From a virus (Duplodnaviria > Heunggongvirae > Uroviricota > Caudoviricetes): a DNA stretch of 43,794 nt. The notes beneath the pieces are model-generated. The model searched no databases and had not been told where the DNA came from. It saw only the letters and a list, made by a program, of their open reading frames with translations. Where the stretch lies: the IMG/VR virus record IMGVR_UViG_2734482574_000013. One strand, given 5' to 3'. Below are positions 7,457-43,500 of the stretch, in pieces (positions within the stretch are counted from its first letter, which is position 1; every line of letters begins with the position of its first letter). Made by a program: the position numbers and the translations under genes.

Positions 7457-7599
7457 CTTATCTCTCCCCTTAACGCCGGGTGGCGGAACTGAAACCTGCT
7501 GCACTGCAAAATCTGAACCCTGCCGTCATGTTCATACGCCTCGGGCTGGCTACTTAACCCCTGACCACTGCCTGGTAACTCGAAGTATTGCCCTGCGTT

Positions 7600-7700
7600 C
7601 TGTGGGGCGGGGTGGGTTGGTAGGTATATAATGTACTTTGTGTTCATTGATGTAAAGTACTATAAGTACATTTTGTGTGTAAAAAAATGAGATGGGATAA
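7600..7700 (-). promoter_or_regulatory. Putative early-left promoter/operator region with repeated ATGTACT-type motifs
   Basis: ATGTACT at 7631-7637, palindromic AGTACT at 7656-7661 and inverted AGTACAT at 7666-7672; on the minus strand a TTACAT ... TATATA promoter-like pair overlaps them, directed toward ydaG. Confidence 0.4.
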
Positions 7701-7746
7701 AGTGAAGCACAAACCCGGAGGGGGACGCTACCGGATTTATGCTGGT

Positions 7747-8184
7747 TTAAGAGGCTTTTTGTTTTTTCTTTCGTGCTAGCTCTTCGTAAATTGCATTGTA
7801 CTTCTGTTTTTTCTCCTCAAGAGTTTTTAAAAGTTCATCTGTCTCACTGTCAGGGAGCTCGTCCAGAAGGTCAATGATGATTTTTTGTCTTGGATTTAAC
7901 TCCTGATAGAAACGTACCTGTCCACTTTCTTCTGTATCCTCTCCCAAAAGATAGGTTGGTGTTGTTCCAATGAGTGTTGCTAATTCCCTTAATTTCTCTC
8001 GGCGAGGAATTGTTTCGCCATTAAACCATTTGCTAACCGCTTTTGGTGTTAATTTCATTCGACGGGCAATTTCTGCCTGCCTTCCATGTTGTTCATAACC
8101 AGCGTTTTCACAGGCTAGCGCAAGCCTACTGGCGAACTCTTTACGCGCTTTATCTTCATGAACCATAAGTTCAATGATATTCAC
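7747..8184 (-). CDS. racR: Prophage repressor RacR, XRE-family HTH (145 aa from GTG at 8184)
   Basis: HTH segment (QAEIARRMKLTPKAVSKWFNG); divergent from ydaS-ydaT; no obvious SD, so the start (GTG 8184 or ATG 8166) is uncertain and the mRNA may be leaderless. Confidence 0.82.
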   Translation of the reverse strand: MNIIELMVHEDKARKEFASRLALACENAGYEQHGRQAEIARRMKLTPKAVSKWFNGETIPRREKLRELATLIGTTPTYLLGEDTEESGQVRFYQELNPRQKIIIDLLDELPDSETDELLKTLEEKKQKYNAIYEELARKKKQKAS

Positions 8185-8245
8185 TCTTGAATGTACTGTC
8201 AGTTCTGTTATAGCATGTACTCAAAGTTCACATTGTGAGGGTGAT
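8185..8245. promoter_or_regulatory. racR / ydaS divergent control region with two direct ATGTACT motifs
   Basis: ATGTACT at 8191-8197 and 8215-8221, 24 bp apart, between the divergent starts of racR (8184) and ydaS (8246). Confidence 0.45.
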
Positions 8246-8500
8246 ATGAACCAGAAAACACTTGAAGATGTAATCAAAACTGTTCGCGTTTCTGTTGTGG
8301 CCGACGTTTGTGGTGTCAGCCAAAGAGCAATCTACAAATGGATGGATAACGGAAAATTGCCTCGCACAGAATATACCGGCGAAACAAATTACGCTGAAAA
8401 AATCGCTCATGCATCAAACGGATTATTTTCTGCTGATGTAATTTTAACTATTGGCAGAAATAAAACTACTACGAAAAAGCTGATGGGAGTTGATTCATGA
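8246..8500 (+). CDS. ydaS: Cro-like HTH protein YdaS (84 aa from MNQKTLED)
   Basis: RBS GAGGGTGA before the ATG at 8246; HTH segment VADVCGVSQRAIYKWMDNG; divergent from the repressor; track ORF starts further upstream at 8174. Confidence 0.78.
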   Translation: MNQKTLEDVIKTVRVSVVADVCGVSQRAIYKWMDNGKLPRTEYTGETNYAEKIAHASNGLFSADVILTIGRNKTTTKKLMGVDS

Positions 8501-8919
8501 AAATCAAGCATGAGCACATCGAGTCAGTGTTGTTAGCCCTGGCAGCCGAAAAAGGGCAGGCATGGGTAGCCAATGCCATTACTGAAGAATATCTGCGCCA
8601 GGGGGGCGGCGAATTGCCCCTGGTACCAGGCAAGGACTGGAATAATCAGCAGAATATCTATCACCGTTGGTTGAAAGGTGAAACGAAAACGCAAAGAGAA
8701 AAAATTCAGAAGCTGATCCCAGCAATTCTGGCAATCCTTCCGCGCGAGCTGCGTCACCGACTCTGCATCTTCGATACCCTGGAACGCCGTGCATTACTGG
8801 CGGCGCAGGAAGCGTTAAGTACGGCAATTGATGCGCATGATGATGCAGTCCAAGCCGTTTACCGGAAAGCGCATTTCAGCGGCGGCGGGTCTTCCGACGA
8901 TTCTGTCATTGTTCATTAA
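8497..8919 (+). CDS. ydaT: YdaT, CII-like / toxic protein (140 aa)
   Basis: 140-aa ORF overlapping the ydaS stop by 4 nt; length and sequence match recalled YdaT. Confidence 0.82.
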   Translation: MKIKHEHIESVLLALAAEKGQAWVANAITEEYLRQGGGELPLVPGKDWNNQQNIYHRWLKGETKTQREKIQKLIPAILAILPRELRHRLCIFDTLERRALLAAQEALSTAIDAHDDAVQAVYRKAHFSGGGSSDDSVIVH

Positions 8920-8931
8920 GCAAAAGTTTCC

Positions 8932-9789
8932 ATGCTGTTTGTGCTTATTCTAAGCCACCGGGCAGCATCATACGGGGCAATTATGGCCGCATTACCATAC
9001 ATGCAACTGTACATAGCTGATTACCTGGCTGACACCATGCATTTGTCAGCAGAGGAGCATGGTGCGTATTTGTTGCTGATGTTCAATTACTGGCAAACAG
9101 GAAAGCCAATACCTAAAAACAGGCTGGCAAAAATTGCCCGTCTGACTAACGAGCGATGGGCTGATGTTGAACCATCCTTGCAGGAGTTTTTTTGCGATAA
9201 CGGCGAGGAATGGGTGCATCTTCGGATTGAGGAAGATCTGGCATCAGTCAGGGAAAAATTAACCAAAAAATCAGCCGCAGGAAAAGCATCTGTTCAGGCC
9301 AGAAGAAGCAGAAAGGAAGCAGATGTTCAAACAAAACAAGAGAGAAATTTAACAGGTGTTCAAACAGATGTTGAAGTGGTGTTTGAACATGATGTCAACA
9401 CAAAGGCAACTAATAAAGATACAGATAAAGATCTAAAAACAGATCCCCCCCTAAATCCCCCCCGGGGGAATCGAGGTGTCAAAAAGTTTGACCCTCTGGA
9501 TATTGCTTTGCCGAACTGGATTTCTGTCTCGCTTTGGCGTGAGTGGGTTGAATTTCGCCAGGCATTGCGAAAACCGATTCGAACGGAGCAGGGCGCTAAC
9601 GGGGCGATACGGGAGCTGGAAAAATTCCGCCAGCAGGGTTTTTCACCTGAGCAGGTGATTCGACACAGCATCGCCAATGAATACCAGGGCTTGTTCGCGC
9701 CGAAAGGTGTTCGACCTGAGACGTTACTCCGACAGGTTAACACCGTCTCGTTACCGGATAGTGCGATCCCGCCAGGCTTCAGGGGGTAA
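8932..9789 (+). CDS. ydaU: YdaU replication-initiation-like protein (285 aa)
   Basis: Position ahead of the DnaC-like gene; length matches recalled YdaU; contains two C7 homopolymer tracts. Confidence 0.8.
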   Translation: MLFVLILSHRAASYGAIMAALPYMQLYIADYLADTMHLSAEEHGAYLLLMFNYWQTGKPIPKNRLAKIARLTNERWADVEPSLQEFFCDNGEEWVHLRIEEDLASVREKLTKKSAAGKASVQARRSRKEADVQTKQERNLTGVQTDVEVVFEHDVNTKATNKDTDKDLKTDPPLNPPRGNRGVKKFDPLDIALPNWISVSLWREWVEFRQALRKPIRTEQGANGAIRELEKFRQQGFSPEQVIRHSIANEYQGLFAPKGVRPETLLRQVNTVSLPDSAIPPGFRG

Positions 9790-9795
9790 CTGACC

Positions 9796-10230
9796 ATGAA
9801 AAATATTGCGACAGGCGACGTTCTTGAACGTATCCGCAGACTGGCCCCGTCACATGTAACCGCGCCATTCAAGACGGTAGCGGAGTGGCGCGAGTGGCAA
9901 CTTTCCGAAGGCCAGAAACGTTGTGAGGAGATCAACCGTCAGAATCGTCAGTTGCGGGTGGAAAAAATTCTGAATCGCTCTGGCATCCAGCCATTGCACC
10001 GCAAATGCTCGTTTTCGAATTACCAGGTGCAGAACGAAGCGCAGCGATACGCGTTGAGTCAGGCGAAATCCATCGCTGATGAACTGATGACCGGGTGTAC
10101 AAATTTTGCGTTCAGCGGAAAACCTGGTACCGGGAAGAACCACTTAGCGGCAGCTATCGGGAATCGCCTGCTGAAAGACGGTCAGACAGTGATTGTGGTT
10201 ACCGTGGCTGATGTTATGAGTGCCCTGCAC
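9796..10230 (+). CDS. ydaV: YdaV, DnaC/IstB-like AAA+ helicase loader, 5' part only (3' end lost in N-run)
   Basis: Walker A motif GKPGTGKNHLAAAIG; the ORF runs directly into the N-run at 10231. Confidence 0.8.
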
Positions 10231-10569
10231 NNNNNNNNNNNNNNNNNNNNNNNNNNNNNNNNNNNNNNNNNNNNNNNNNNNNNNNNNNNNNNNNNNNNNN
10301 NNNNNNNNNNNNNNNNNNNNNNNNNNNNNNNNNNNNNNNNNNNNNNNNNNNNNNNNNNNNNNNNNNNNNNNNNNNNNNNNNNNNNNNNNNNNNNNNNNNN
10401 NNNNNNNNNNNNNNNNNNNNNNNNNNNNNNNNNNNNNNNNNNNNNNNNNNNNNNNNNNNNNNNNNNNNNNNNNNNNNNNNNNNNNNNNNNNNNNNNNNNN
10501 NNNNNNNNNNNNNNNNNNNNNNNNNNNNNNNNNNNNNNNNNNNNNNNNNNNNNNNNNNNNNNNNNNNNN
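10231..10569. other. Run of 339 N (masked or unsequenced); hides the ydaV 3' end
   Basis: Literal n characters in the sequence. Confidence 1.
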
Positions 10570-10593
10570 AATTTTTACCGGGAGGAAATTTTT

Positions 10594-11355
10594 ATGGAGA
10601 CTGTTTTTGACGCACTGAAAGCAATGGGAAAAGCCACATCCATAGAACTTGCTGCGCGACTTGATATCAGTCGTGAAGAAGTGCTGAACGAACTATGGGA
10701 ACTGAAAAAAGCTGGTTTCGTTGATAAAAGCGCGTACACCTGGCGTGTGGCTGATAACAACGTTCAGCAGGAACAGCCAATGCAGGCAGAACTGCCGGAA
10801 GAAACCACCACGGCAACTGTAGTGAAAATCTCAGAGTGCGATTTAACCGCGACGATTGAACAACGCGGACCACAAACGGCGGATGAACTGGCTACGCTGT
10901 TCGGTACAACATCCCGCAAAGTTGCTTCAACGCTGGCAATGGCAATCAGCAAAGGACGCCTGATTCGCGTAAACCAGAACAGTAAATTTCGTTACTGCAT
11001 GCCGGGCGATAATTTACCAGCAGAGCCGAAAGCTGCATCGGTAGCGGAAACTGATGGTAAAGCCTTTCCTCAGCCAGCCGGTGTTGCGTTACCAGTACAG
11101 GAAGCGGCAACACAGGAAGATATTAAAACAGAAACTGTGGCGGACATTGTGCAGTCGCTGCCATCGTTTACTGAAACGCAAGCGGATGACCTAGTTTTAC
11201 CATCGCTGCATATGGCAAACCGCGAACTGCGTCGGGCGAAAAATCATGTCCAGAAGTGGGAGCGAGTCTGCGCCGCGCTGCGGGAGCTGAACAAGCACCG
11301 GGATATTGTCCGACAGATTGTCGATTCCTCCAGTCGTATTGTGTCGGAAAAGTGA
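10594..11355 (+). CDS. ydaW: YdaW-like protein (253 aa, starts [12 protein letters not shown]), apparently intact
   Basis: RBS GGAGG 8 nt before the ATG at 10594; follows the replication genes; the ORF-track fusion with ydaV is an artefact of the N-run. Confidence 0.65.
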
Positions 11356-11370
11356 TTGCCGGAGGCGCTT

Positions 11371-11787
11371 ATGGCAAAAGTTTTTACACAGGAAGAGCGT
11401 GAAAAAATTAAGGAGCAGGTTGTTGAGTTGGTACGCCAGAGTGGGCGCGAGACGTTAAGGCAACTGGAGGCCAAGACAGGTGCGACAAGATATCTGATGA
11501 GCATTCTTGCCAGAGAGTTGGTTGCCAGTGGCGATGTATACAACTCTGGCTATGGGTTATTCCCGTCTGAACAGGCTCGTAAGGATTGGAAAAACGCCCG
11601 CAAAAAACTATCCAGGGCAAAGGTGAAAAAAACGGTTGTGGTTGATCCTGACCTTATCTGGTCATTACCAGACGGAGAAATACGCCGCTATGACAGGCGT
11701 CAGAACATAATCTGTCGCGAGTGCCGGAAGAGTGAAGTTATGAAACGTGTACTGGCATTTTATCAAGGAAATCTTCGGTATTTATAG
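11371..11787 (+). CDS. Hypothetical protein (138 aa, MAKVFTQEEREK...), basic with a C-terminal CRECRK motif
   Basis: RBS GGAGG 6 nt before the ATG at 11371; the track ORF starts at an upstream TTG. Confidence 0.55.
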   Translation: MAKVFTQEEREKIKEQVVELVRQSGRETLRQLEAKTGATRYLMSILARELVASGDVYNSGYGLFPSEQARKDWKNARKKLSRAKVKKTVVVDPDLIWSLPDGEIRRYDRRQNIICRECRKSEVMKRVLAFYQGNLRYL

Positions 11788-11985
11788 ACGTTACTAGATC
11801 AAAGAGCATTAGTTCATATGTAAATTGACATTTTTCTGGCACAGGGGAGAGCTAGCGTGGTTGTCCGCTTTGTGCCAATAGCGGACATTGCTGGCTCATG
11901 GTATGTTAGTTTAAGGAGGCAGGTTATGCCCTGTATTTCGCTGTGGTATAATAGTTGCGCAATTGATACAAGGGAGCGTTACATC

Positions 11986-12948
11986 GTGAAAATTGTTTTC
12001 GAGGTTAATGGAAAGAAAGTTCCACTAAAATCTTTAAAATACATAAGCAAAAAAGATCAACTCGAAGTAATGAAAAACTGGTTCTTTGAAAACTTTGAAG
12101 ATCCGGCAAATGCTTGTCCGTATGAAAGTAGAGAAGGTGGCTATGCTTACATATATGGCGGGCCGTATGATGCGAGCGAAGAACTACAATCCATCTTCGG
12201 TCAATATGTTAAATCTGAGTATATTGAGGAATTAGTAGATGAATTACAAACACAATGTTTTGACTGGTCTGGAAACTCAAATAATATAGATGATTGGTAC
12301 GATGATGATATCTACGACGCTGTAACGTCTTCCGGTAATCCGTATTTAAAATTCATTGATAATATCGATAAAATAAAAAAACTTGCAAAAGATAAAACTG
12401 AACAACAGCAAAAAAACCACTTGCTTAGTTTGCTCTACACGAATGTTATTACAGCTTTGGAAACGCTTTATGTTGAGCTATTCATTAATTCTATAGAGAA
12501 AGATGATGTCTACATAGCCAATTGTATAGAAAAAGGTAAGACTGAATTTAAAGTAAGCAAAGATATTGCTGCGTTGCCTTTCAAGGGTGAACCCATCGAG
12601 AAAATTAGGGGAGAGCTAATCAGGTCAATCAAGGAACACTTGATCAGTGCAAGCTGGCATAGCACTAAAAAGGTAATCGACCGCTATGAAGCTACATTCG
12701 ATATAAAAGTACAAAAAGACTGTCCGATAGAAGCTATTGAATTGGCAACCCTCAATCGAAATCACTTAGTGCATCGTGGTGGAAAGGATAAAGAAGGGAA
12801 CCTCGTAGTGATTACAGACCAGGATCTTGAAACGCTGATTGAAAATGCATCGAACCTGGCAATTATGCTCTACAACAGTTTAAATGTAGCAACGAATAAA
12901 ACCACCATTTTGCAACCAGATGACAAACCGTTCATTCATGAATTTTAA
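11986..12948 (+). CDS. Uncharacterized protein with a C-terminal HEPN-like RNxxxH motif (320 aa from GTG; alternative ATG at 11926 with AGGAGG RBS)
   Basis: AT-rich coding sequence; RBS AAGGGAG before the GTG at 11986; extended -10 TGgTATAAT at 11944-11952; motif RNHLVH encoded at 12757-12774. Confidence 0.6.
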   Translation: MKIVFEVNGKKVPLKSLKYISKKDQLEVMKNWFFENFEDPANACPYESREGGYAYIYGGPYDASEELQSIFGQYVKSEYIEELVDELQTQCFDWSGNSNNIDDWYDDDIYDAVTSSGNPYLKFIDNIDKIKKLAKDKTEQQQKNHLLSLLYTNVITALETLYVELFINSIEKDDVYIANCIEKGKTEFKVSKDIAALPFKGEPIEKIRGELIRSIKEHLISASWHSTKKVIDRYEATFDIKVQKDCPIEAIELATLNRNHLVHRGGKDKEGNLVVITDQDLETLIENASNLAIMLYNSLNVATNKTTILQPDDKPFIHEF

Positions 12949-12963
12949 TAGCGCAGGTCATAC

Positions 12964-13965
12964 ATGGATATTCGCACACGAAAGACAAAATTTTTAGAGT
13001 CGTTAGATTCAACTGAAGTGATACGCAAAGCAGTAAGTCTCGCTATAGATTGCATTATTGATAATCATAATAGTAATGAAGATACCCCCTTAGTTATTAC
13101 CAGCTATGATGATCTCTGTAGAATCCAGGTGCTAAATTATGTACAGGAGTTTTGCGAAGCTGCATTCCCTGATATGGATGAATATTACTTTAGTCCTAAC
13201 ATACTTCGCATCAACGGCAAGACTAGTGAAGAAGCTTGTATTAACTTAATTAAACTCTTAAGAAGTACAAAAGGCATGCTATTCTGGTCCGATGCCCCAT
13301 CGTGGTTCGCTAGCCTCCCCGACGGATTATTCCATGTTGTTAACATTGATCAAAAAATCGTTACTCGCGGCCTTAATAAGAAAAACTCTAAGCCGACAAT
13401 AATCAATAAAGATTACAGTGTAGATACACTACTATCAGAGCTATTTTTGAATGGCGCACACATGGAGCAACCCAACGTACACAACGTTTCTGAGGGAAAC
13501 ATGAAGTTCTATGATGAATGCCATGCTGGATTAATCAGACCAATACCCGCTCCAATAGGCGCGTCATACGATGAAGAGATCACAATTAATTCTCCAGATT
13601 GGCAAAAGCTCGCGTGTGTAGCTTTACGCCGCTATCAGTCGAAGGAATGTCATGACGGAATGCAATGGGATACAACCGATCATGGTTGGACTGATGTAAT
13701 CGCGTATCCATTCGTCGAAGAAATACAATCAATGGATAATAGTGGTTATCGACAATGTTTAGTTGGGCTGGTCACAATAAACAATTCAAATGCAAATTCT
13801 CCGTACCTATCTACCGTTTGGATACATCCATTTTATCGCAGGAGAGGGTTATTAAGTAAGTTATGGCCAAAATTACAAGAGTTATATGGAAGTAACTTCG
13901 AAATTGAGCGACCTAATGAAAATATGAAAGCATTTCTGAAAAGTGCGAAACACGCAGATTACTAA
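12964..13965 (+). CDS. Uncharacterized protein with a GNAT-like acetyltransferase-type C-terminus (333 aa)
   Basis: Starts 15 nt after the upstream gene stop (operon-like); AT-rich; C-terminal segment LVGLVTIN...VWIHPFYRRRGLLSKLW resembles the GNAT acetyl-CoA-binding motif. Confidence 0.55.
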   Translation: MDIRTRKTKFLESLDSTEVIRKAVSLAIDCIIDNHNSNEDTPLVITSYDDLCRIQVLNYVQEFCEAAFPDMDEYYFSPNILRINGKTSEEACINLIKLLRSTKGMLFWSDAPSWFASLPDGLFHVVNIDQKIVTRGLNKKNSKPTIINKDYSVDTLLSELFLNGAHMEQPNVHNVSEGNMKFYDECHAGLIRPIPAPIGASYDEEITINSPDWQKLACVALRRYQSKECHDGMQWDTTDHGWTDVIAYPFVEEIQSMDNSGYRQCLVGLVTINNSNANSPYLSTVWIHPFYRRRGLLSKLWPKLQELYGSNFEIERPNENMKAFLKSAKHADY

Positions 13966-14151
13966 TTTATGAATCAGTCTGTGGAGTTAGGGTTGGTGTG
14001 AACAAGTAGGGTAAGAGCCTCAACGTGATGCTATGCCGACCTGCTCCCTGAGAATTCACACAGAAGGCTGCTAGCAATGTCTGCAGATCGCTCAAAGCGG
14101 ACTAAAATGTTGGCTTGTTTCTGACTTAGAGCATTTAAGGAAGTGCTGGTG

Positions 14152-14924: not shown

Positions 14925-15737
14925 AACCACCTCCTCCAAAACATGCATTAAAAATGCATCTTTTGGAGGGTTATGTCAAGCTGTTATGAAACACATAATT
15001 GATATGTTGATTAGAGGAGAAGATAGAATAAATATGGTTGTTTTTCGTATAACTATTTGTTTTACTTTTAGTTTATGCATTCTGTGTGTTAGGAATAAGT
15101 TATTAAAGTTTAATCAAAAAATCTCGATGTAGTCCACATAGATTACTGTTACTGAACCTTATTGTGTGTATTAGTTGTGTTCTGAAATTTCAGCTTAATT
15201 ATTTATGATGTATTTTTTAACGATAAATATTTTCCCAGGATACCTTTACTGTGTATATAAATAAATTATATACGCATAAATAATGTAAAGGCGTCCTTTT
15301 AGATATATCTTATCAAATGTTAATGACTTGAGTGGGAAATATGATTCCAGCAACTTATCATGTGGCTACTTTATAAAAATAATGCCCATATAAAACAACA
15401 AGCGAAAAGGATTACGGATAAAAAAGGAGCGAGATGTGCGAACTTGTTATTTTCCATGTTTAACCACCTTAAATAATTGATGATGACGGGATGATTGCAT
15501 CTGTAATGCTTTTATTGAAATGTTATGATAAAAAAGAACTTTTGCATAACATTAAAATGTAATTTATCTAATCGTTTTTAATAATAAGTGTCGTATTTCT
15601 ATCCTTGTACCAGCTATTTGATATGTAGTGTTTGTTCATGCTATGTGGGGCTTTACACCATAGCCAGTTTATTTATACTTTATTCGTCAGCCTGAACAAC
15701 TGGCATCTGCTGCGCTGCGCCATCGAGAGATTGAGAA

Positions 15738-16337: not shown

Positions 16338-16627
16338 TGGTGAATTTACGTAAAGCGGCTAAAGGCCAGATGTGCCAGATCAGAATCCCTGGCTACTGCA
16401 ATCACAATCCCGAAACCTCTGTGCTGGCGCATTACAGGCTGGCGGGGACGTGCGGAACAGCGACAAAACCACATGATATGCAGGCGGCGATAGCCTGTAG
16501 CTCATGCCACGATCTAATCGACGGGCGGGTAAAAACCAGCGATTACACCAAAGAAGAATTGCGCCTGATGCATGCTGAAGGGGTTTTTCGCACACAAGAA
16601 ATCTGGAGAAAGAAAGGTCATTTATGA
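16337..16627 (+). CDS. Nin-region Cys-rich putative zinc-binding protein, DUF1364-like (96 aa)
   Basis: Start overlaps the upstream stop (ATGA); several Cys/His clusters (CQIRIPGYC...CSSCHD). Confidence 0.55.
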   Translation: MVNLRKAAKGQMCQIRIPGYCNHNPETSVLAHYRLAGTCGTATKPHDMQAAIACSSCHDLIDGRVKTSDYTKEELRLMHAEGVFRTQEIWRKKGHL

Positions 16628-17166
16628 TTTACCCAACGAATACAGGAAAAAGCGGAGAACACCTTCGCCTCACCACGCTGGAAAGTGTCTGGATTCAGGG
16701 AAAACTACGTATGTGGGGGCGCTGGTCGTATATTGGCGGTGGCAGGTCAGGGAATATGTTCAATCAGTTGTTGGCATCCAAAAAACTGACGAAAACAGCC
16801 ATTAATGAAGCCCTGCGCAGAATGAAAAAAGCGGGAATAGAGAAAGCTGAGCTGGAAGCGTTTTTGCGAGAGATGATCAACGGCAAGCAAAAGAGCTGGC
16901 TGGCGCATTGTACTGATGCAGAGGCGTTATGTATTGATCGAGTCATAAGTGAGGTGCTGGCAGAGCATCCAGGATTGATTTGCATTCTCCGGCAACGCTA
17001 TGAAGGGCGGGGGATGACTAAGCGCAAAATGGCTGAATTGCTAAATGATGCACACCCAGAGTGGTGTTTTAGCACATGCGAAAAACGGATTGCTAATTGG
17101 TTAGCTGTTGCTGAGTATGCCCTATATATTCCCATGCGTGAATCATTTGCTGAGAAAATGGCTTGA
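16624..17166 (+). CDS. Late-gene antitermination protein Q (phage 21/82-like, 180 aa)
   Basis: Last gene before the late terminator and lysis region; Cys/His cluster and overall resemblance to lambdoid Q proteins. Confidence 0.75.
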   Translation: MIYPTNTGKSGEHLRLTTLESVWIQGKLRMWGRWSYIGGGRSGNMFNQLLASKKLTKTAINEALRRMKKAGIEKAELEAFLREMINGKQKSWLAHCTDAEALCIDRVISEVLAEHPGLICILRQRYEGRGMTKRKMAELLNDAHPEWCFSTCEKRIANWLAVAEYALYIPMRESFAEKMA

Positions 17167-17246
17167 TTTCTTACGTATAAACTGCTTCAATTTTGCTATG
17201 CTTCGCAAAGCTGTATCGCGAGGCGGATTGCAGACATGGACATCGT

Positions 17247-17273
17247 AAAAAAACCGCTTAATGCGGTTTTTTT
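17247..17273. terminator. Bidirectional intrinsic terminator (A7-CCGC-ttaat-GCGG-T7), tR'-like, downstream of Q
   Basis: Perfect stem flanked by an A7 run and a T7 run. Confidence 0.7.
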
Positions 17274-17593
17274 ACGTCAGGAAAGCAGGGGAGAATGCTG
17301 CTAGTTGGGCAACTGGTCTTTCTGCTCCAAATTATAACAGAGACCAGTTATAGTTTCGGTGCTGTGTTTTTTTTACAATATTGTGATAACACATTGCTGG
17401 CGGGAGTTTTGATATTTCTTGGCAGGGGCTGATGATGCGTTATCCTGATGTCGTCAACTCATATAAAATGAGATGAGAGATCATTGCAGGGTGGTTTGTA
17501 ATTCGCTGTTTAGCGGGACAATATGTTGTCTGATACAAGACACCCGACGCCTCAGATTACTATAATAAAGACGAAGCATCCTTTGTATTGACC

Positions 17594-17620
17594 AACCGCC
17601 TGTTTAGGCGGTTCTTTTTG
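17594..17620 (+). terminator. Intrinsic terminator (AACCGCC-tgttta-GGCGGTT followed by CTTTTTGG)
   Basis: 7-bp GC-rich stem followed by a T-tract. Confidence 0.6.
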
Positions 17621-18210
17621 GGCTGGTTTATTGTATGCCAAATGATTATTAAAAAGGTTGTGTTAATAACAAGATCCGAAATAATATGCCTGCATATTTT
17701 TATCTTGCTTATATTCTGCATATTGTGCATAGCAGGCTCATCCCTGCAATCAAAACTGTATGATGAGTATTTTTTGTTTTCCTTTTTTCCAGTCATCTGA
17801 TGATGACCTGCTTCTTTTTAATCCGGATCGACATCAGTTTTTTAAGATAATTCCTGCGAGTTATATGCATAAATGCCACAAACTCCGCATTTTATGTGGT
17901 TGGGAGTTGCCGGGCGCGCAGTGAGTTTGCTAAGAAAACTCCTGCATGGTGAATCCCCCTGTGCGGTGGGGTGATACCATTAACCTTTTCTGTCGCCGAC
18001 AGGTATCACGAACATTTTGTTCACCGGGAGGCACCCGGCACCATGCACTTCAATAGATTCTCTCCACATTATGGATATTCTTTCAGAATATCCCACGCAG
18101 ACTTTGTGTAAATGTTAACAAATGTGCGTTTTATTTGATCTGATTCGCTGTTTGAGCGTCCAAAACAACGGTATATATAATCCTTTACTATATGACATAT
18201 GTGAGGAAAA

Positions 18211-18639
18211 ATGGGTTTTCGTAGCGCATCAATTCTTACGTTGATTATTAGTGGGATTATTATCGGGTGCACTGATGCTGTATCGACAAATTATCATGAC
18301 CGTACATCATATTACTCCGATAAAGCAATAGAGACACAGTATGTGAGTTCATCTGAACGTACTTCTGATGTTAGTGAGGATATCCGTCTGTATGCCCATC
18401 AAATCAAGAGCGCCATCGAAAAACAGTTCGGGGATGCGAGTAAGTATTCAGGAAAAGAGTGTACACTGAGAATGCATATGGCCCCGAATGGCCTTCTACT
18501 GGAGGTTAAAAGAGAAAGTGGAGACCTCGATTTATGTCGTGAAGCGATGAATGCGATAAAGAATGCTGATATACCTGCCCCCCCTTCGCCGGAAGTATAT
18601 AAAGTATTTCAAAATGGGGTGCTGGATTTTAAACCCTGA
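18211..18639 (+). CDS. Lipoprotein with TolA C-terminal (domain III)-like domain (142 aa)
   Basis: Lipobox IIGC after a hydrophobic signal; C-terminal 85 aa (YAHQIKSAIEKQF...CTLRMHMAPNGLLLEV...VYKVFQNGVLDFKP) closely resembles the recalled TolA C-terminus. Confidence 0.75.
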   Translation: MGFRSASILTLIISGIIIGCTDAVSTNYHDRTSYYSDKAIETQYVSSSERTSDVSEDIRLYAHQIKSAIEKQFGDASKYSGKECTLRMHMAPNGLLLEVKRESGDLDLCREAMNAIKNADIPAPPSPEVYKVFQNGVLDFKP

Positions 18640-18789
18640 TATTTATTGTTTTGTAATAAACGGTTTCGGCTTAGGTTTGTTCTGACACAGCTACGGCACT
18701 GAGCTAAATTTAGCGGATAGTCAGCTCTGAGCCAGTGGCGGACGTAACAACTACTATTGCTGAGATTTTAATGGATTGAGGAGCAAGAA

Positions 18790-19185
18790 GTGGGATTAAA
18801 GAAAATCGTTATGTTGACTTTTTGGGTCGGTTTTGTTGCGGGATGCACACCTTTACACCCTTCAGATTGCCACAAAACTACTGCTACAGGTAGTTGCAGT
18901 TCAGGACGCTGGGATGATCAGGATGAATGGGGGGCGCAAGCGCGGGGAATCAGAGCTGCAATTAATGCCAAACTTGATGAGCCGCATAACTGGAAAGGGA
19001 AAAAATGCAGGTTGCATATGGAATTCTCTCAGGATGGCACGGCGTTAAAAATATCTACCAGTAACGGTGATAAAGCCTATTGCGAAGCGATAAAGTCCGC
19101 AGCTCATAAAGCCAAATTTCCGGCCTTCAACAATCCGGAAGTCTACAGAGATTTTCAGAAATCTGGCTTTGACATGCGAGGTTAG
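18790..19185 (+). CDS. Second, more divergent lipoprotein with TolA C-terminal-like domain (131 aa, GTG start)
   Basis: Lipobox VAGC; shares the C..L.M..G...GD..C.A...A..A.FPA...PEVY..FQ pattern with the upstream paralogue; GGAG before the GTG. Confidence 0.65.
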   Translation: MGLKKIVMLTFWVGFVAGCTPLHPSDCHKTTATGSCSSGRWDDQDEWGAQARGIRAAINAKLDEPHNWKGKKCRLHMEFSQDGTALKISTSNGDKAYCEAIKSAAHKAKFPAFNNPEVYRDFQKSGFDMRG

Positions 19186-19436
19186 CTCTTCAATTACTAT
19201 ATCTCATTCATAGCAAACTGACAGATTTGATGATGTTCTATATACGAAACCTGTGATGTCAAGTCTGAGCTAATACAAATAAACATAATATCAGAGAAAT
19301 ACATTTTATTAGCTCGCTACGGCGAGCTTTTTATATTGCATCGTCTCCAGCATATATATCAATTAAGGCTCTGATTGATGTGTCTGAAAGCCTACACATA
19401 ATAACTATGCCATCCGTTCCGTGCGGAGGTGAGGCT

Positions 19437-19652
19437 ATGAAATCCATGGACAAAATTTCAACAGGCATTGCCTACGGCACCTCCGCAGGCAGTGCTGGCT
19501 ACTGGTTTTTACAGTTGCTCGATAGAGTAACTCCGTCACAGTGGGCTGCAATCGGTGTGCTGGGTAGTCTGGTATTTGGCCTGCTGACGTACCTGACAAA
19601 CCTTTATTTCAAGATTAAAGAAGATAAGCGCAAGGCTGCGAGAGGTGAATAA
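19437..19652 (+). CDS. Phage-21-type pinholin S with dual start (71 aa from MKSMDK; 68 aa from the Met at 19446)
   Basis: MKSM dual-start motif followed by two transmembrane segments and a charged C-terminus; matches recalled S21. Confidence 0.88.
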
Positions 19653-20143
19653 TGCCTCCATCATTACGAAAAGTCGTTGCTGCTGCTATTGGTGGCGGAG
19701 CAATTGCTATAGCATCAGTGTTAATCACTGGCCCAAGTGGTAACGATGGTCTGGAAGGTGTCAGCTACATACCATACAAAGATATTGTTGGTGTATGGAC
19801 TGTATGTCACGGGCATACAGGAAAAGNNNNNNNNNNNNNNNNNNNNNNNNNNNNNNNNNNNNNNNNNNNNNNNNNNNNNNNNNNNNNNNNNNNNNNNNNN
19901 NNNNNNNNNNNNNNNNNNNNNNNNNNNNNNNNNNNNNNNNNNNNNNNNNNNNNNNNNNNNNNNNNNNNNNNNNNNNNNNNNNNNNNNNNNNNNNNNNNNN
20001 NNNNNNNNNNNNNNNNNNNNNNNNNNNNNNNNNNNNNNNNNNNNNNNNNNNNNNNNNNNNNNNNNNNNNNNNNNNNGCAATGGAAAGGTCTCATGACTCG
20101 TCGTGAGATTGAGCGTGAAATCTGTTTGTGGGGTCAGCAATGA
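19652..20143 (+). CDS. SAR (signal-arrest-release) endolysin, phage-21 R-like; central part hidden by N-run
   Basis: N-terminal SAR segment [27 protein letters not shown]; start overlaps the holin stop; C-terminus [21 protein letters not shown]. Confidence 0.85.
19827..20076. other. Run of 250 N inside the endolysin gene
   Basis: Literal n characters. Confidence 1.
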
Positions 20144-40589: not shown

Positions 40590-43500
40590 ATGGGTAAAGG
40601 CAGCAGTAAGGGGCATACCCCGCGCGAAGCGAAGGACAACCTGAAGTCCACGCAGCTGCTGAGTGTGATCGATGCCATCAGTGAAGGGCCGGTTGAAGGT
40701 CCGGTNNNNNNNNNNNNNNNNNNNNNNNNNNNNNNNNNNNNNNNNNNNNNNNNNNNNNNNNNNNNNNNNNNNNNNNNNNNNNNNNNNNNNNNNNNNNNNN
40801 NNNNNNNNNNNNNNNNNNNNNNNNNNNNNNNNNNNNNNNNNNNNNNNNNNNNNNNNNNNNNNNNNNNNNNNNNNNNNNNNNNNNNNNNNNNNNNNNNNNN
40901 NNNNNNNNNNNNNNNNNNNNNNNNNNNNNNNNNNNNNNNNNNNNNNNNNNNNNNNNNNNNNNNNNNNNNNNNNNNNNNNNNNNNNNNNNNNNNNNNNNNN
41001 NNNNNNNGGAAAAAGACATCACCATTAAGGGCAAAACCACCTCGCAGTATCTGGTCTCGGTGGTGGTGNNNNNNNNNNNNNNNNNNNNNNNNNNNNNNNN
41101 NNNNNNNNNNNNNNNNNNNNNNNNNNNNNNNNNNNNNNNNNNNNNNNNNNNNNNNNNNNNNNNNNNNNNNNNNNNNNNNNNNNNNNNNNNNNNNNNNNNN
41201 NNNNNNNNNNNNNNNNNNNNNNNNNNNNNNNNNNNNNNNNNNNNNNNNNNNNNNNNNNNNNNNNNNNNNNNNNNNNNNNNNNNNNNNNNNNNNNNNNNNN
41301 NNNNNNNNNNNNNNNNNNATACAGCGGTATCTGGGACGGAACGTTAAAACCAGCATACAGCAACAACATGGCCTGGTGTCTGTGGGATATGCTGACCCAC
41401 CCGCGCTACGGCATGGGGAAACGTCTTGGTGCGGCGGATGTGGACAAATGGGCGCTGTATGTCATCGGCCAGTACTGCGACCAGTCAGTGCCGGACGGCT
41501 TTGGCGGCACGGAGCCGCGCATCACCTGTAATGCGTACCTGACCACACAGCGCAAGGCGTGGGATGTGCTCAGTGATTTCTGCTCGGCGATGCGCTGTAT
41601 GCCGGTATGGAACGGGCAGACGCTGACGTTCGTGCAGGACCGACCGTCGGATAAGGTGTGGACCTATAACCGCAGTAATGTGGTGATGCCGGATGATGGC
41701 GCGCCGTTCCGCTACAGCTTCAGCGCCCTGAAAGACCGCCATAATGCCGTTGAGGTGAACTGGATTGACCCGGATAACGGCTGGGAGACGGCGACAGAGC
41801 TTGTGGAGGATACGCAGGCCATTGCCCGTTACGGTCGTAACGTCACGAAGATGGATGCTTTTGGCTGTACCAGCCGGGGGCAGGCACACCGCGCCGGGCT
41901 GTGGCTGATTAAAACAGAACTGCTGGAAACGCAGACCGTGGACTTCAGCGTGGGCGCAGAAGGGCTTCGCCATGTGCCGGGCGATGTCATTGAAATCTGT
42001 GATGATGACTATGCGGGTATCAGCATCGGCGGGCGCGTGCTGGCGGTAAACAGCCAGACCCGGACGCTGACGCTCGACCGTGAAATCACGCTGCCATCCT
42101 CCGGTACCATGCTGATAAGCCTGGTTGACGGAAGTGGCAATCCGGTCAGCGTGGAGGTTCAGTCCGTCACCGACGGCGTGAAGGTGAAAGTGAGCCGTGT
42201 TCCTGACGGCGTTGCTGAATACAGCGTGTGGGGGCTGAAGCTGCCGACGTTGCGCCAGCGCCTGTTCCGCTGTGTGAGTATCCGTGAGAACGATGACGGC
42301 ACGTATGCCATCACTGCCGTGCAGCATGTACCGGAAAAAGAAGCCATCGTGGATAACGGGGCGCACTTTGACGGCGACCAGAGCGGCACGGTGAATGGTG
42401 TCACGCCGCCAGCGGTGCAGCACCTGACTGCCGAAGTCACCGCAGACAGCGGGGAATATCAGGTGCTGGCGCGCTGGGACACGCCGAAGGTGGTGAAGGG
42501 CGTGAGCTTCCTGCTCCGTCTGACCGTAACAGCGGATGACGGCAGTGAGCGGCTGGTCAGCACGGCCCGGACGACGGAAACCACTTACCGCTTCACACAA
42601 CTGGCGCTGGGGAACTACAGGCTGACAGTCCGGGCAGTAAATGCGTGGGGGCAGCAGGGCGATCCGGCGTCGGTATCGTTCCGGATTGCCGCACCGGCAG
42701 CGCTGTCGCGGATTGAGCTGACGCCGGGCTATTTTCAGATAACCGCCACGCCGCATCTTGCGGTTTATGATCCGACGGTACAGTTTGAGTTCTGGTTCTC
42801 GGAAAAGCGGATTGCGGATATCAGGCAGGTTGAAACCACAGCACGCTATCTTGGCACGGCGCTGTACTGGATAGCCGCCAGTATCAATATCAAACCGGGC
42901 CATGATTATTACTTTTATATCCGCAGTGTGAACACCGTTGGCAAATCGGCATTCGTGGAGGCTGTTGGTCAGCCGAGTGATGATGCATCCGGTTATCTGG
43001 ATTTTTTCAAAGGCGAGATAGGGAAAACCCATCTGGCTCAGGAGCTGTGGACGCAGATTGATAACGGTCAGCTTGCGCCTGACCTGGCTGAAATCAGGAC
43101 GTCCATTACGGATGTCAGCAATGAAATCACGCAGACCGTCAATAAGAAACTGGAAGACCAGAGTGCGGCAATTCAGCAGATACAGAAGGTTCAGGTTGAT
43201 ACAAATAATAACCTGAACAGCATGTGGGCTGTGAAGCTGCAGCAGATGCAGGACGGACGCCTTTATATCGCGGGTATTGGTGCCGGTATTGAGAACACCC
43301 CTGACGGCATGCAGAGTCAGGTGCTGCTGGCGGCGGACAGGATTGCGATGGTTAATCCTGCGAATGGCAACACAAAACCGATGTTTGTTGGTCAGGGCGA
43401 TCAGATATTCATGAACGACGTGTTCCTGAAACGCCTGACGGCCCCCACCATTACCAGCGGTGGAAATCCATCGGCATTTTCCCTGACTCCGGACGGAAAG

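Follow-up and report, generated by a model that had tools for sequence, protein, structure and literature searches.

Two adjacent genes in the late region of a Rac-type prophage encode predicted lipoproteins that end in a domain like domain III of TolA (TolAIII). The prophage is contained in a stretch of DNA of 43,794 nucleotides (the window; IMG/VR record IMGVR_UViG_2734482574_000013, Caudoviricetes), and the two genes, open reading frames (ORFs) A and B, occupy positions 18,211 to 19,185. Each product would consist of a lipid anchor, a flexible linker and the TolAIII-like domain, without domains I and II of TolA. We tentatively propose that such motor-less copies, tethered to the outer membrane, compete for the ligands of TolA and thereby render the cell tolerant of group A colicins and of filamentous phages.

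ORFs A and B end in a TolA domain III-like fold

Full-length TolA, of about 350-430 amino acids, is composed of an N-terminal membrane anchor (domain I), a long helical region (domain II) and domain III. An earlier note on this DNA had assigned TolAIII-like C-termini to both ORFs, and both genes were found at the positions it gave (Table 1). ORF A matched the Pfam family PF06519 (TolA C-terminal) with 82.6 bits (E = 2.4e-23) and ORF B with 54.6 bits (E = 1.3e-14), the cut-off being 25; ORF A also matched Pfam TonB_2 with 23.6 bits. When aligned to sequences of the Protein Data Bank (PDB), residues 55-142 of ORF A matched residues 334-421 of E. coli TolA free of gaps, both proteins running to their last residue (E = 5e-28), and residues 50-129 of ORF B matched TolA 341-419 (E = 5e-9). 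The C-termini read VYKVFQNGVLDFKP in ORF A and VYEVFKNAPLDFKP in TolA, so that the end motifs given in the earlier note proved correct. AlphaFold2 (AF2) models led to the same assignment. The model of ORF A (residues 52-142, predicted local distance difference test score, pLDDT, about 90) superimposed on 2x9a_B with a root-mean-square deviation (rmsd) of 0.6 Å at 59% identity and a target-normalised template modelling (TM) score of 0.96. The model of ORF B (residues 40-131, pLDDT above 90) superimposed on 3qdp with an rmsd of 1.1 Å at 31% identity and a target-normalised TM score of 0.92. N-terminal to the TolAIII-like domain both ORFs were predicted to be disordered.

Lipoprotein signals and predicted location

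Lipoprotein signals were identified by a PROSITE PS51257-type rule: a positively charged n-region, a hydrophobic h-region and a lipobox [LVI][ASTVI][GAS]C with the Cys at position 15-35. Both ORFs satisfy this rule, with N-termini that read MGFRSASILTLIISGIIIGC in ORF A (Cys20) and MGLKKIVMLTFWVGFVAGC in ORF B (Cys19, counted from the GTG start). The lipoboxes IIGC and VAGC pointed out in the earlier note are thus borne out, and they are kept in the families to which the ORFs belong. The Prokaryotic Genome Annotation Pipeline (PGAP) places the start of ORF B at an internal ATG at 18811, whereby the Lys-Lys n-region is lost and the Cys moves to position 12. Since the PGAP start strips the n-region, and in view of the family alignment, the GTG start fits ORF B better. 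Among the matches listed, the strict lipobox regular expression hit 25 of 30 full-length proteins of the A family and 116 of 120 of the B family; of the misses inspected by eye, most were over-extended, truncated or fused gene calls. Asp at position +2 occurs in none of the A- and B-family members, and ORFs A and B both carry Thr at this position. Under the established +2 sorting rule of bacterial lipoproteins, these residues predict an anchor in the outer membrane. We infer from these signals that both proteins are lipidated and located at the outer membrane.

Relation of ORF A to ORF B and to TolA

ORF A and ORF B share 29% identity (E = 2e-18), and their identity to E. coli TolAIII amounts to 59% and 31%, respectively. 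The view of the earlier note that the second gene is a diverged local paralogue had to be abandoned: ORF B is as far from ORF A as from TolA, its nearest relatives are all B-type, and it belongs to a separate, wider clade, so that a tandem duplication of A was rejected. The idea that ORF A was captured recently from tolA of the host was likewise rejected: its identity to E. coli TolAIII is only 59%, and other short members of the family, at 50-53%, are almost equally close. Judged by these identities, A and B are members of one family that are unrelated by duplication. Neither is an orthologue of TolA, as both are without the full-length architecture and lie outside the tolQ-tolR-tolA-tolB-pal-cpoB cluster. 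They cover just the last 80-97 positions of the TolA models NF007065 and TIGR02794. Neither passes the former (A 107.8, B 53.7, cut-off 213), and the latter is passed by A (75.6) and failed by B (47.2) at a cut-off of 59.45. Passing TIGR02794 accounts for the PGAP gene name 'tolA' of ORF A, which is an over-annotation. The whole 128-position profile of PHROG 5772, a phage protein family whose function is unknown, is matched by both proteins (E = 1.6e-62 for A and 6.7e-65 for B).

The B clade is under very strong purifying selection. The ratio of non-synonymous to synonymous substitution rates (dN/dS) is 0.04-0.12 for mature B including the linker, at dS values of 0.2-1.1, and the linker carries the conserved motif CxPLHPSxCHKTTAxGSC. 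A comparison of ORF A with its 66% identical allele gave a dN/dS of 0.24 for the domain and of 0.50 for signal peptide plus linker.

Binding surfaces compared with TolAIII

Residues were mapped by subtracting 279 (A) or 290 (B) from the TolA number. The beta3 strand of TolAIII (L417-P421) gains a strand from g3p-N1 and colicin N (ColN) and, by inference, from TolB, and the substitutions D418P or K420P abolish all three interactions (PMC4339652). This strand, LDFKP in TolA, is identical in ORF A and conservatively changed to FDMRG in ORF B; among 75 representatives of the short family, in which the core of TolAIII is preserved, L417 is kept in 66%, D418 in 70% and F419 in 78%. Colicin A (ColA) adds a strand to beta2 (L375-P380), and K368, K379 and K396 are its cation-pi lysines (PMC3365938). 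The beta2 sequence is LLDIKP in TolA, LLEVKR in A and ALKIST in B, and of the three lysines of TolA two are kept in A and none in B. The earlier note had listed TolB, Pal and CpoB as contacts of TolAIII; among these, a direct contact of TolAIII with Pal is disputed in the current literature (PMC7391070).

Distribution of the genes

Of 5,426 complete E. coli genomes, 776 (14%) carry the pair of A and B with an identity of at least 99%, and in IMG/VR each gene is represented by about 125 near-identical copies. B follows A in 77 of the 80 IMG/VR loci that carry A, the other three ending at a contig edge. Homology of IMG/VR prophages to the window mostly starts at 17882-18020, or else at 15370 and further upstream, and stops at 19653 or at a run of Ns. 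These edges indicate that a small RNA (sRNA), A, B and the holin gene travel jointly behind different Q genes. The cassette is also carried by the viable lambdoid phage mEp460; its record, mEp460_ev081, was the only one among 50,697 GenBank phage records in which tblastn detected either gene, so that isolated phages provide no comparative series. A structure search of BFVD gave no viral match at E below 1e-3. In the Rac prophage of K-12 MG1655 (NC_000913.3 1411899-1434958), ydaW runs straight into the rzpR pseudogene, and the Q-like gene, the sRNA, A, B, the holin and the endolysin are deleted, which probably explains why studies of the cassette are missing.

The A family comprises 46 clusters, all in E. 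coli and Shigella, and its alleles share 91%, 74% and 66% identity with ORF A. The last of these alleles stands alone in the Q-to-holin region of other lambdoid prophages and once lies beside a nanS-p esterase gene. The B family is made up of 370 clusters, with 78-99% identity among the 120 matches listed, and extends to Citrobacter, Enterobacter, Serratia, Klebsiella and Raoultella, where it is represented by a single chromosomal gene in a non-phage context. Furthermore, a B-type gene with 88% nucleotide identity was found on about 600 plasmids of E. coli and Shigella. In the IncB/O/K/Z and IncI-typed I-complex plasmids examined, this gene is located 68 nucleotides 3' of the relaxase genes nikA-nikB. 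Plasmid pO157 of E. coli O157:H7 (NZ_CP017441.1 73942-74373) harbors an intact B-type gene beside a truncated nikB, near toxB. One chromosomal B-type gene of Serratia marcescens is directly followed by a defence pair, consisting of a GmrSD-family and a HEPN-domain gene; this pair lies between nrdDG and an ArsP-family (PF03773) gene, after which come phn genes.

A profile built from A and B found 593 proteins at E below 1e-3 among 1.84 billion representatives. Of the 148 top matches that were newly fetched, 78 had a length of 100-170 amino acids, and 55 of these 78 pass the strict lipobox pattern. Short relatives were named from Erwinia, Klebsiella, Serratia, Dryocola, Citrobacter, Rahnella, Hafnia, Kosakonia and Pluralibacter, all of them labelled 'cell envelope integrity protein TolA' or 'colicin import membrane protein'. 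Their genes occupy unrelated chromosomal sites, such as after icd in Serratia or between fliE and yedD in Pluralibacter; chromosomal relatives were also seen in Enterobacter. On Serratia proteamaculans-type contigs a gene for a 147-residue TolAIII lipoprotein lies directly 3' of icd, with no phage genes visible nearby. In E. coli, icd is an integration site for e14 and phage 21. Salmonella matches of the profile labelled 'partial TolA' were discarded, being fragments of genuine tolA adjoining tolB-pal-cpoB.

Genomic context and regulatory elements of the cassette

The window represents a Rac-type prophage that begins in intR, and long stretches of it are 99.9-100% identical to prophages adjoining ttcA in many E. 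coli chromosomes. From 7482 to 14054 (immunity and replication) it diverges from an otherwise near-identical reference prophage except for a 500-bp match, a mosaicism typical of lambdoid phages. The position between Q and the lysis cassette, as described in the earlier note, was confirmed: NinB-like and HNH/YbcO genes and then the Q-like gene precede A and B, and the P21-type holin gene is followed by genes for an endolysin (partly masked by Ns) and Rz/Rz1 and by trkG. The Q-like ORF additionally matches Pfam DUF1133 and, as a borderline case, Phage_antitermQ (26.1 bits, cut-off 26). The same note had equated this slot with the one that carries stx in Stx phages; the nanS-p esterase slot of Stx-type phages, 3' of an STnc100/PasD-type sRNA, fits at least equally well. 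The GC content of the cassette is 39-46%, versus 48-55% in the flanking phage genes. Among the four runs of Ns in the window (10231-10569, 19827-20076, 40706-41007 and 41069-41318), the second falls within the endolysin ORF (19652-20143); in NZ_CP047658, the endolysin gene is split by IS2 near this site. No tRNA genes were found in the window. Many late regions of Stx phages do contain tRNA genes.

Table 1. Features of the cassette and its immediate surroundings in the window; residues are numbered from the start codon of each ORF.
Feature	Position	Strand	Evidence and remarks
Q-like late antiterminator gene	16624..17166	+	PHROG 753 'anti-termination protein Q-like', E 2e-79; 5' neighbour of the cassette
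Promoter-like site AAGACA-18-TATAAT with hairpin and T-run	17537..17625	+	Consensus scan; hairpin -14.3 kcal/mol, z -1.7
STnc100/PasD-family prophage small RNA	17914..18100	+	Rfam RF02076, full-length, 86.6 bits (gathering score 47); directly 5' of ORF A
Sigma-70-like promoter TTGAGC-18-TATAAT, predicted	18152..18181	+	10/12 consensus; 30 nucleotides 5' of the ORF A start
ORF A, predicted prolipoprotein	18211..18639	+	ATG start, 142 residues
ORF A lipobox IIGC	Cys20 at 18268-18270	+	Signal peptide, PROSITE PS51257-type rule
ORF A linker	residues 21-54	+	Disordered, Ser/Thr/Tyr-rich, about 34 residues
ORF A TolA domain III	residues 55-142, 18373-18636	+	Pfam, PDB alignment, model
Promoter-like site CTGACA-17-TAAATT, predicted	18682..18710	+	Consensus scan, 9/12; 5' of ORF B
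ORF B 5' leader with Shine-Dalgarno sequence	18750..18789	+	About 40 nucleotides kept in phage, plasmid and Enterobacter/Serratia/Citrobacter chromosomal copies
ORF B, predicted prolipoprotein	18790..19185	+	GTG start, GAGGAG 6 nucleotides upstream, 131 residues
ORF B lipobox VAGC	Cys19 at 18844-18846	+	Signal peptide, PROSITE PS51257-type rule; numbering from GTG
ORF B linker	residues 20-45	+	Conserved Cys-loop C27...C36, about 26 residues
ORF B TolA domain III	residues 46-131, 18925-19182	+	Pfam, PDB alignment, model
Intrinsic terminator closing the two-gene cassette	19311-19328	+	7-bp GC-rich stem, then UUUUUAUAUU; -13 kcal/mol, z -3.25
P21-type holin gene (essD-like)	19437..19652	+	Pfam Phage_holin_2_1; PHROG holin; right end of the co-travelling block

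Promoters were called by matching to a consensus and are pattern evidence alone. The site at 17537-17625 is possibly the late promoter with its first terminator, an assignment of low confidence that comes from such a match. At 17200-17328, matches to isrK were weak and far under the gathering score. The STnc100 family of sRNAs has recently been tied to PasD, and its usual site is between Q and the lysis genes, beside nanS-p esterases (bioRxiv 10.64898/2026.05.13.724894). In the window, the terminal hairpin of this sRNA (-12.8 kcal/mol) is without a U-run after it; hence, read-through into ORF A is possible. The promoter-like site at 18152-18181 is identical in phage mEp460 and is not kept 5' of the 66% A allele. 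The CTGACA block of the site 5' of ORF B is kept upstream of the B-type copies of I-complex plasmids. The conserved leader of B-type genes, TATTnCTGAGnTTTAAATGGATTGAGGnGCAAGAAGTG, through which gene callers sometimes run the ORF, may have a regulatory role. No hairpin comparable to the terminator at 19311 was detected between ORFs A and B in a folding scan. This terminator lies about 110 nucleotides 5' of the holin gene, toward the end of the 250-nucleotide spacer between ORF B and the holin (19186-19436). In Stx-type phages, the site just 5' of the holin is occupied by the sRNAs PasA and PasC.

With a promoter-like site, two ORFs and a single terminator inside the late operon, the cassette has a moron-like anatomy, its promoter being a prediction. 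The same block is found behind different Q genes, and in other prophages the slot holds nanS-p or other genes. The promoter-like site of its own together with the location in the late operon would allow expression both in the lysogen and, via Q-antiterminated read-through, late in infection.

A decoy co-receptor as the favoured reading

The reading that we rank first, and hold tentatively, is that A and B act as decoys of TolA. Once the proteins had been exported by Sec, lipidated at Cys20 or Cys19 and sorted by Lol, the TolAIII-like domain would be exposed on the inner face of the outer membrane. As domains I and II are missing, the proteins have no link to the proton-driven TolQR motor and could not be energised. 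The tethered domain would bind the same beta-strand ligands as TolAIII without pulling on them and, being placed under the outer membrane, would meet incoming ligands earlier than TolA. Competitive capture of the translocation domains of group A colicins and related bacteriocins, and of the N1 domain of g3p of filamentous phages, would make the lysogen or plasmid host tolerant to Tol-dependent colicins and filamentous phages. Both the ligand binding and the protective phenotype of A and B are what we infer from the conserved domain.

Exported TolAIII is reported to make cells colicin-tolerant. TolAIII binds ColN and g3p with affinities of about 1 µM and TolB with about 40 µM (PMC4339652), and TolA is present at 400-800 copies per cell (PMC8928145). 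With these affinities and this low copy number, a modest amount of decoy could outcompete TolA for invaders and leave TolB barely touched. The receptor of phage IF1 is the pilus of IncI-type plasmids, and TolA's C-terminal domain serves as its co-receptor (PMC7911016; structure 2x9a). Since IF1 needs both, there is a selective rationale for B-type copies on these plasmids. The kept beta3 strand, the occurrence of B-type genes on I-complex plasmids and affinities that favour capture of invaders over TolB are consistent with the decoy proposal and give it some support. The distribution also fits a protective accessory gene, as the family is found on plasmids, next to defence genes in one Serratia and as single genes at varied chromosomal sites. 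A wider claim, namely that short tethered TolAIII copies form a widespread mobile defence family in Enterobacterales, with prophages shielding their lysogens and I-complex plasmids shielding their piliated hosts from IF1-type phages, appears doubtful.

Several observations weigh against a decoy function. The helix-1 motif K351-F352-Y353 is kept in long TolAs and relaxed in the short family (Q-F-G in A, K-L-D in B). As the Tyr of this motif (cited as Y352) has been implicated in TolB binding, the ligand set may differ from that of TolA. ORF B, at about 31% identity to TolAIII, has lost all three cation-pi lysines for ColA, and purifying selection across genera acts very strongly on the whole of mature B, the Cys-loop linker included. 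Such extreme conservation combined with divergent surfaces resembles a protein with a fixed endogenous partner more than an arms-race decoy. Plasmid pO157 is non-conjugative, with nikB truncated and the B-type gene intact, and a link to pili is thus not obligatory. A search against the PADLOC-DB v2 defence models returned no family at E up to 1 for A or B, and a full-text literature search turned up no experiment or study on stand-alone TolAIII lipoproteins. Two leads were discarded: 'EDL933_2012 (TolA)' of CP-933O, with 32-fold ciprofloxacin induction (PMC11125564), is a tail fibre protein according to the supplementary table, and a literature match for IncI1 and TolA was the author name 'Tolar'.

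Alternative readings

Ranked second, and rather unlikely in our estimation, is a modulation of the Tol-Pal system itself. Tethered copies would attach to TolB at its N-terminus, or to CpoB, and disconnect TolB-Pal from the TolQRA motor, with a looser outer membrane, vesiculation, leakiness and easier lysis or phage release as the outcome. The TolB-binding beta3 strand is kept, and export of TolAIII behind a signal sequence has been used to make E. coli leak periplasmic protein (PMC6195910, citing Wan & Baneyx 1998 and Levengood-Freyermuth 1993). A review adds that modulated TolB interactions could regulate vesicle production (PMC7391070). The cassette also lies directly 5' of the lysis genes, in one block with the holin (17882/18020 to 19653), where Q-dependent read-through would raise late expression. 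However, the low affinity between TolA and TolB, about 40 µM, would require high copy numbers, the K-F-Y motif linked to TolB binding is not kept, and the Rz/Rz1 spanins, which normally suffice, are present. Moreover, B-type genes and most relatives are found on plasmids and chromosomes where the vicinity is free of lysis genes, and other genes separate the 66% A allele from the holin. The evolution of ORF B has led us to consider, in third place, an old accessory outer-membrane lipoprotein of Enterobacterales that would bind, through its TolA/TonB-like fold and conserved Cys-loop linker, a conserved endogenous ligand other than those of TolA and act as a general fitness factor on phages and plasmids, which is unlikely on present evidence. 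It would account mainly for B, where mature protein and linker show dN/dS of 0.04-0.12 at saturated dS, the 5' leader is conserved in every context, the ColA site and in part beta3 have diverged from TolA, the chromosomal sites in Enterobacter and Citrobacter look non-mobile, and the copy on non-conjugative pO157 is intact. Gene neighbourhoods that differ in every genus, though, yield no candidate partner; a scattered, island-like distribution of single genes is typical of accessory protective rather than housekeeping genes; and A is clearly TolA-like at its binding surfaces.

The constant site of the B-type gene after nikB on IncB/O/K/Z and IncI-typed plasmids could point to a role in conjugation, such as mating-pair stabilisation, entry exclusion or passage of the relaxosome through the envelope, with the phage copy as a bystander. 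This is quite improbable, as genes encoding proteins 84-88% identical are found on chromosomes and in phages without transfer genes, and pO157 keeps its gene beside a truncated relaxase. I-complex plasmids, moreover, own dedicated exclusion genes. Finally, A and B might be non-functional passengers, that is, captured tolA fragments hitch-hiking in the late region. ORF A is annotated 'tolA' and is nearest to enterobacterial TolA (59%), and many carriers are defective prophages. Nonetheless, lipoprotein signal peptides were gained and conserved in both families, dN/dS is well under 1, the frames are undisrupted, with an identity of 99% or more in 776 genomes, and a viable phage, mEp460, carries the cassette; this alternative is already disfavoured and very improbable.

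Significance and comparison with known systems

Group A colicins and filamentous phages enter cells by way of TolAIII, which has long been studied in this role and also is the force-delivering end of the Tol-Pal system. Stand-alone, lipid-anchored copies of it on mobile elements are visible to annotation pipelines as 'TolA', and their function has apparently gone undescribed. Genes of this type are common: 14% of the complete E. coli genomes carry them, as do hundreds of plasmids of the IncB/O/K/Z type, pO157 and many Enterobacterales chromosomes. If they encode decoys, they would constitute a new and simple envelope-level immunity based on receptor mimicry on mobile elements, with bearing on colicin ecology, on phage-display hosts and on strategies that turn phages against plasmids. 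Should they tune Tol-Pal instead, they would represent the first naturally occurring regulators at the TolA-TolB contact.

A and B have the same fold as domain III of TolA (about residues 330-421 in E. coli; PDB 1TOL, 1S62, 2X9A and 3QDP/3QDR), with rmsd values of 0.6-1.1 Å. They share its disulfide pair (C363, C388) and its C-terminal beta3 strand, which is identical in A. Unlike in TolA, a lipoprotein signal peptide replaces domain I, the anchor for TolQR coupling, and the long helix of domain II, and the anchor is predicted to lie in the outer rather than the inner membrane, in which case A and B would transmit no proton-motive force. In cells infected by a filamentous phage, g3p blocks the contact between TolAIII and incoming g3p and prevents both superinfection and colicin entry. 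The mechanism proposed here would be the mirror image of this exclusion: there, a ligand saturates the host receptor, whereas with A and B the ligand would be saturated by a receptor copy. Engineered periplasmic TolAIII fusions (Levengood-Freyermuth et al. 1993; Wan & Baneyx 1998) are likewise motor-less periplasmic forms of the domain; they disturb the integrity of the outer membrane and, in the 1993 study, reportedly made cells tolerant of colicins, which is how A and B are proposed to work. However, those are artificial, soluble and overproduced, and A and B are natural, predicted to be lipid-anchored, diverged and carried on mobile elements. In their small size and accessory nature, A and B resemble the outer-membrane lipoproteins Cor, Llp of T5, Bor of lambda, TraT and TrbK, which serve in envelope protection and several of which are morons equipped with a promoter and a terminator of their own. 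By sequence, A and B are unrelated to these proteins, PHROG 5772 being the sole PHROG match, and whereas they block an outer-membrane receptor, A and B copy the domain of a periplasmic co-receptor. The C-terminal domain of TonB has a distantly related fold that also engages its partners by beta-strand augmentation, and it gave weaker matches in the fold search. Its similarity to A and B is far under that of TolAIII, and A and B are without the proline-rich region and the membrane anchor of TonB.

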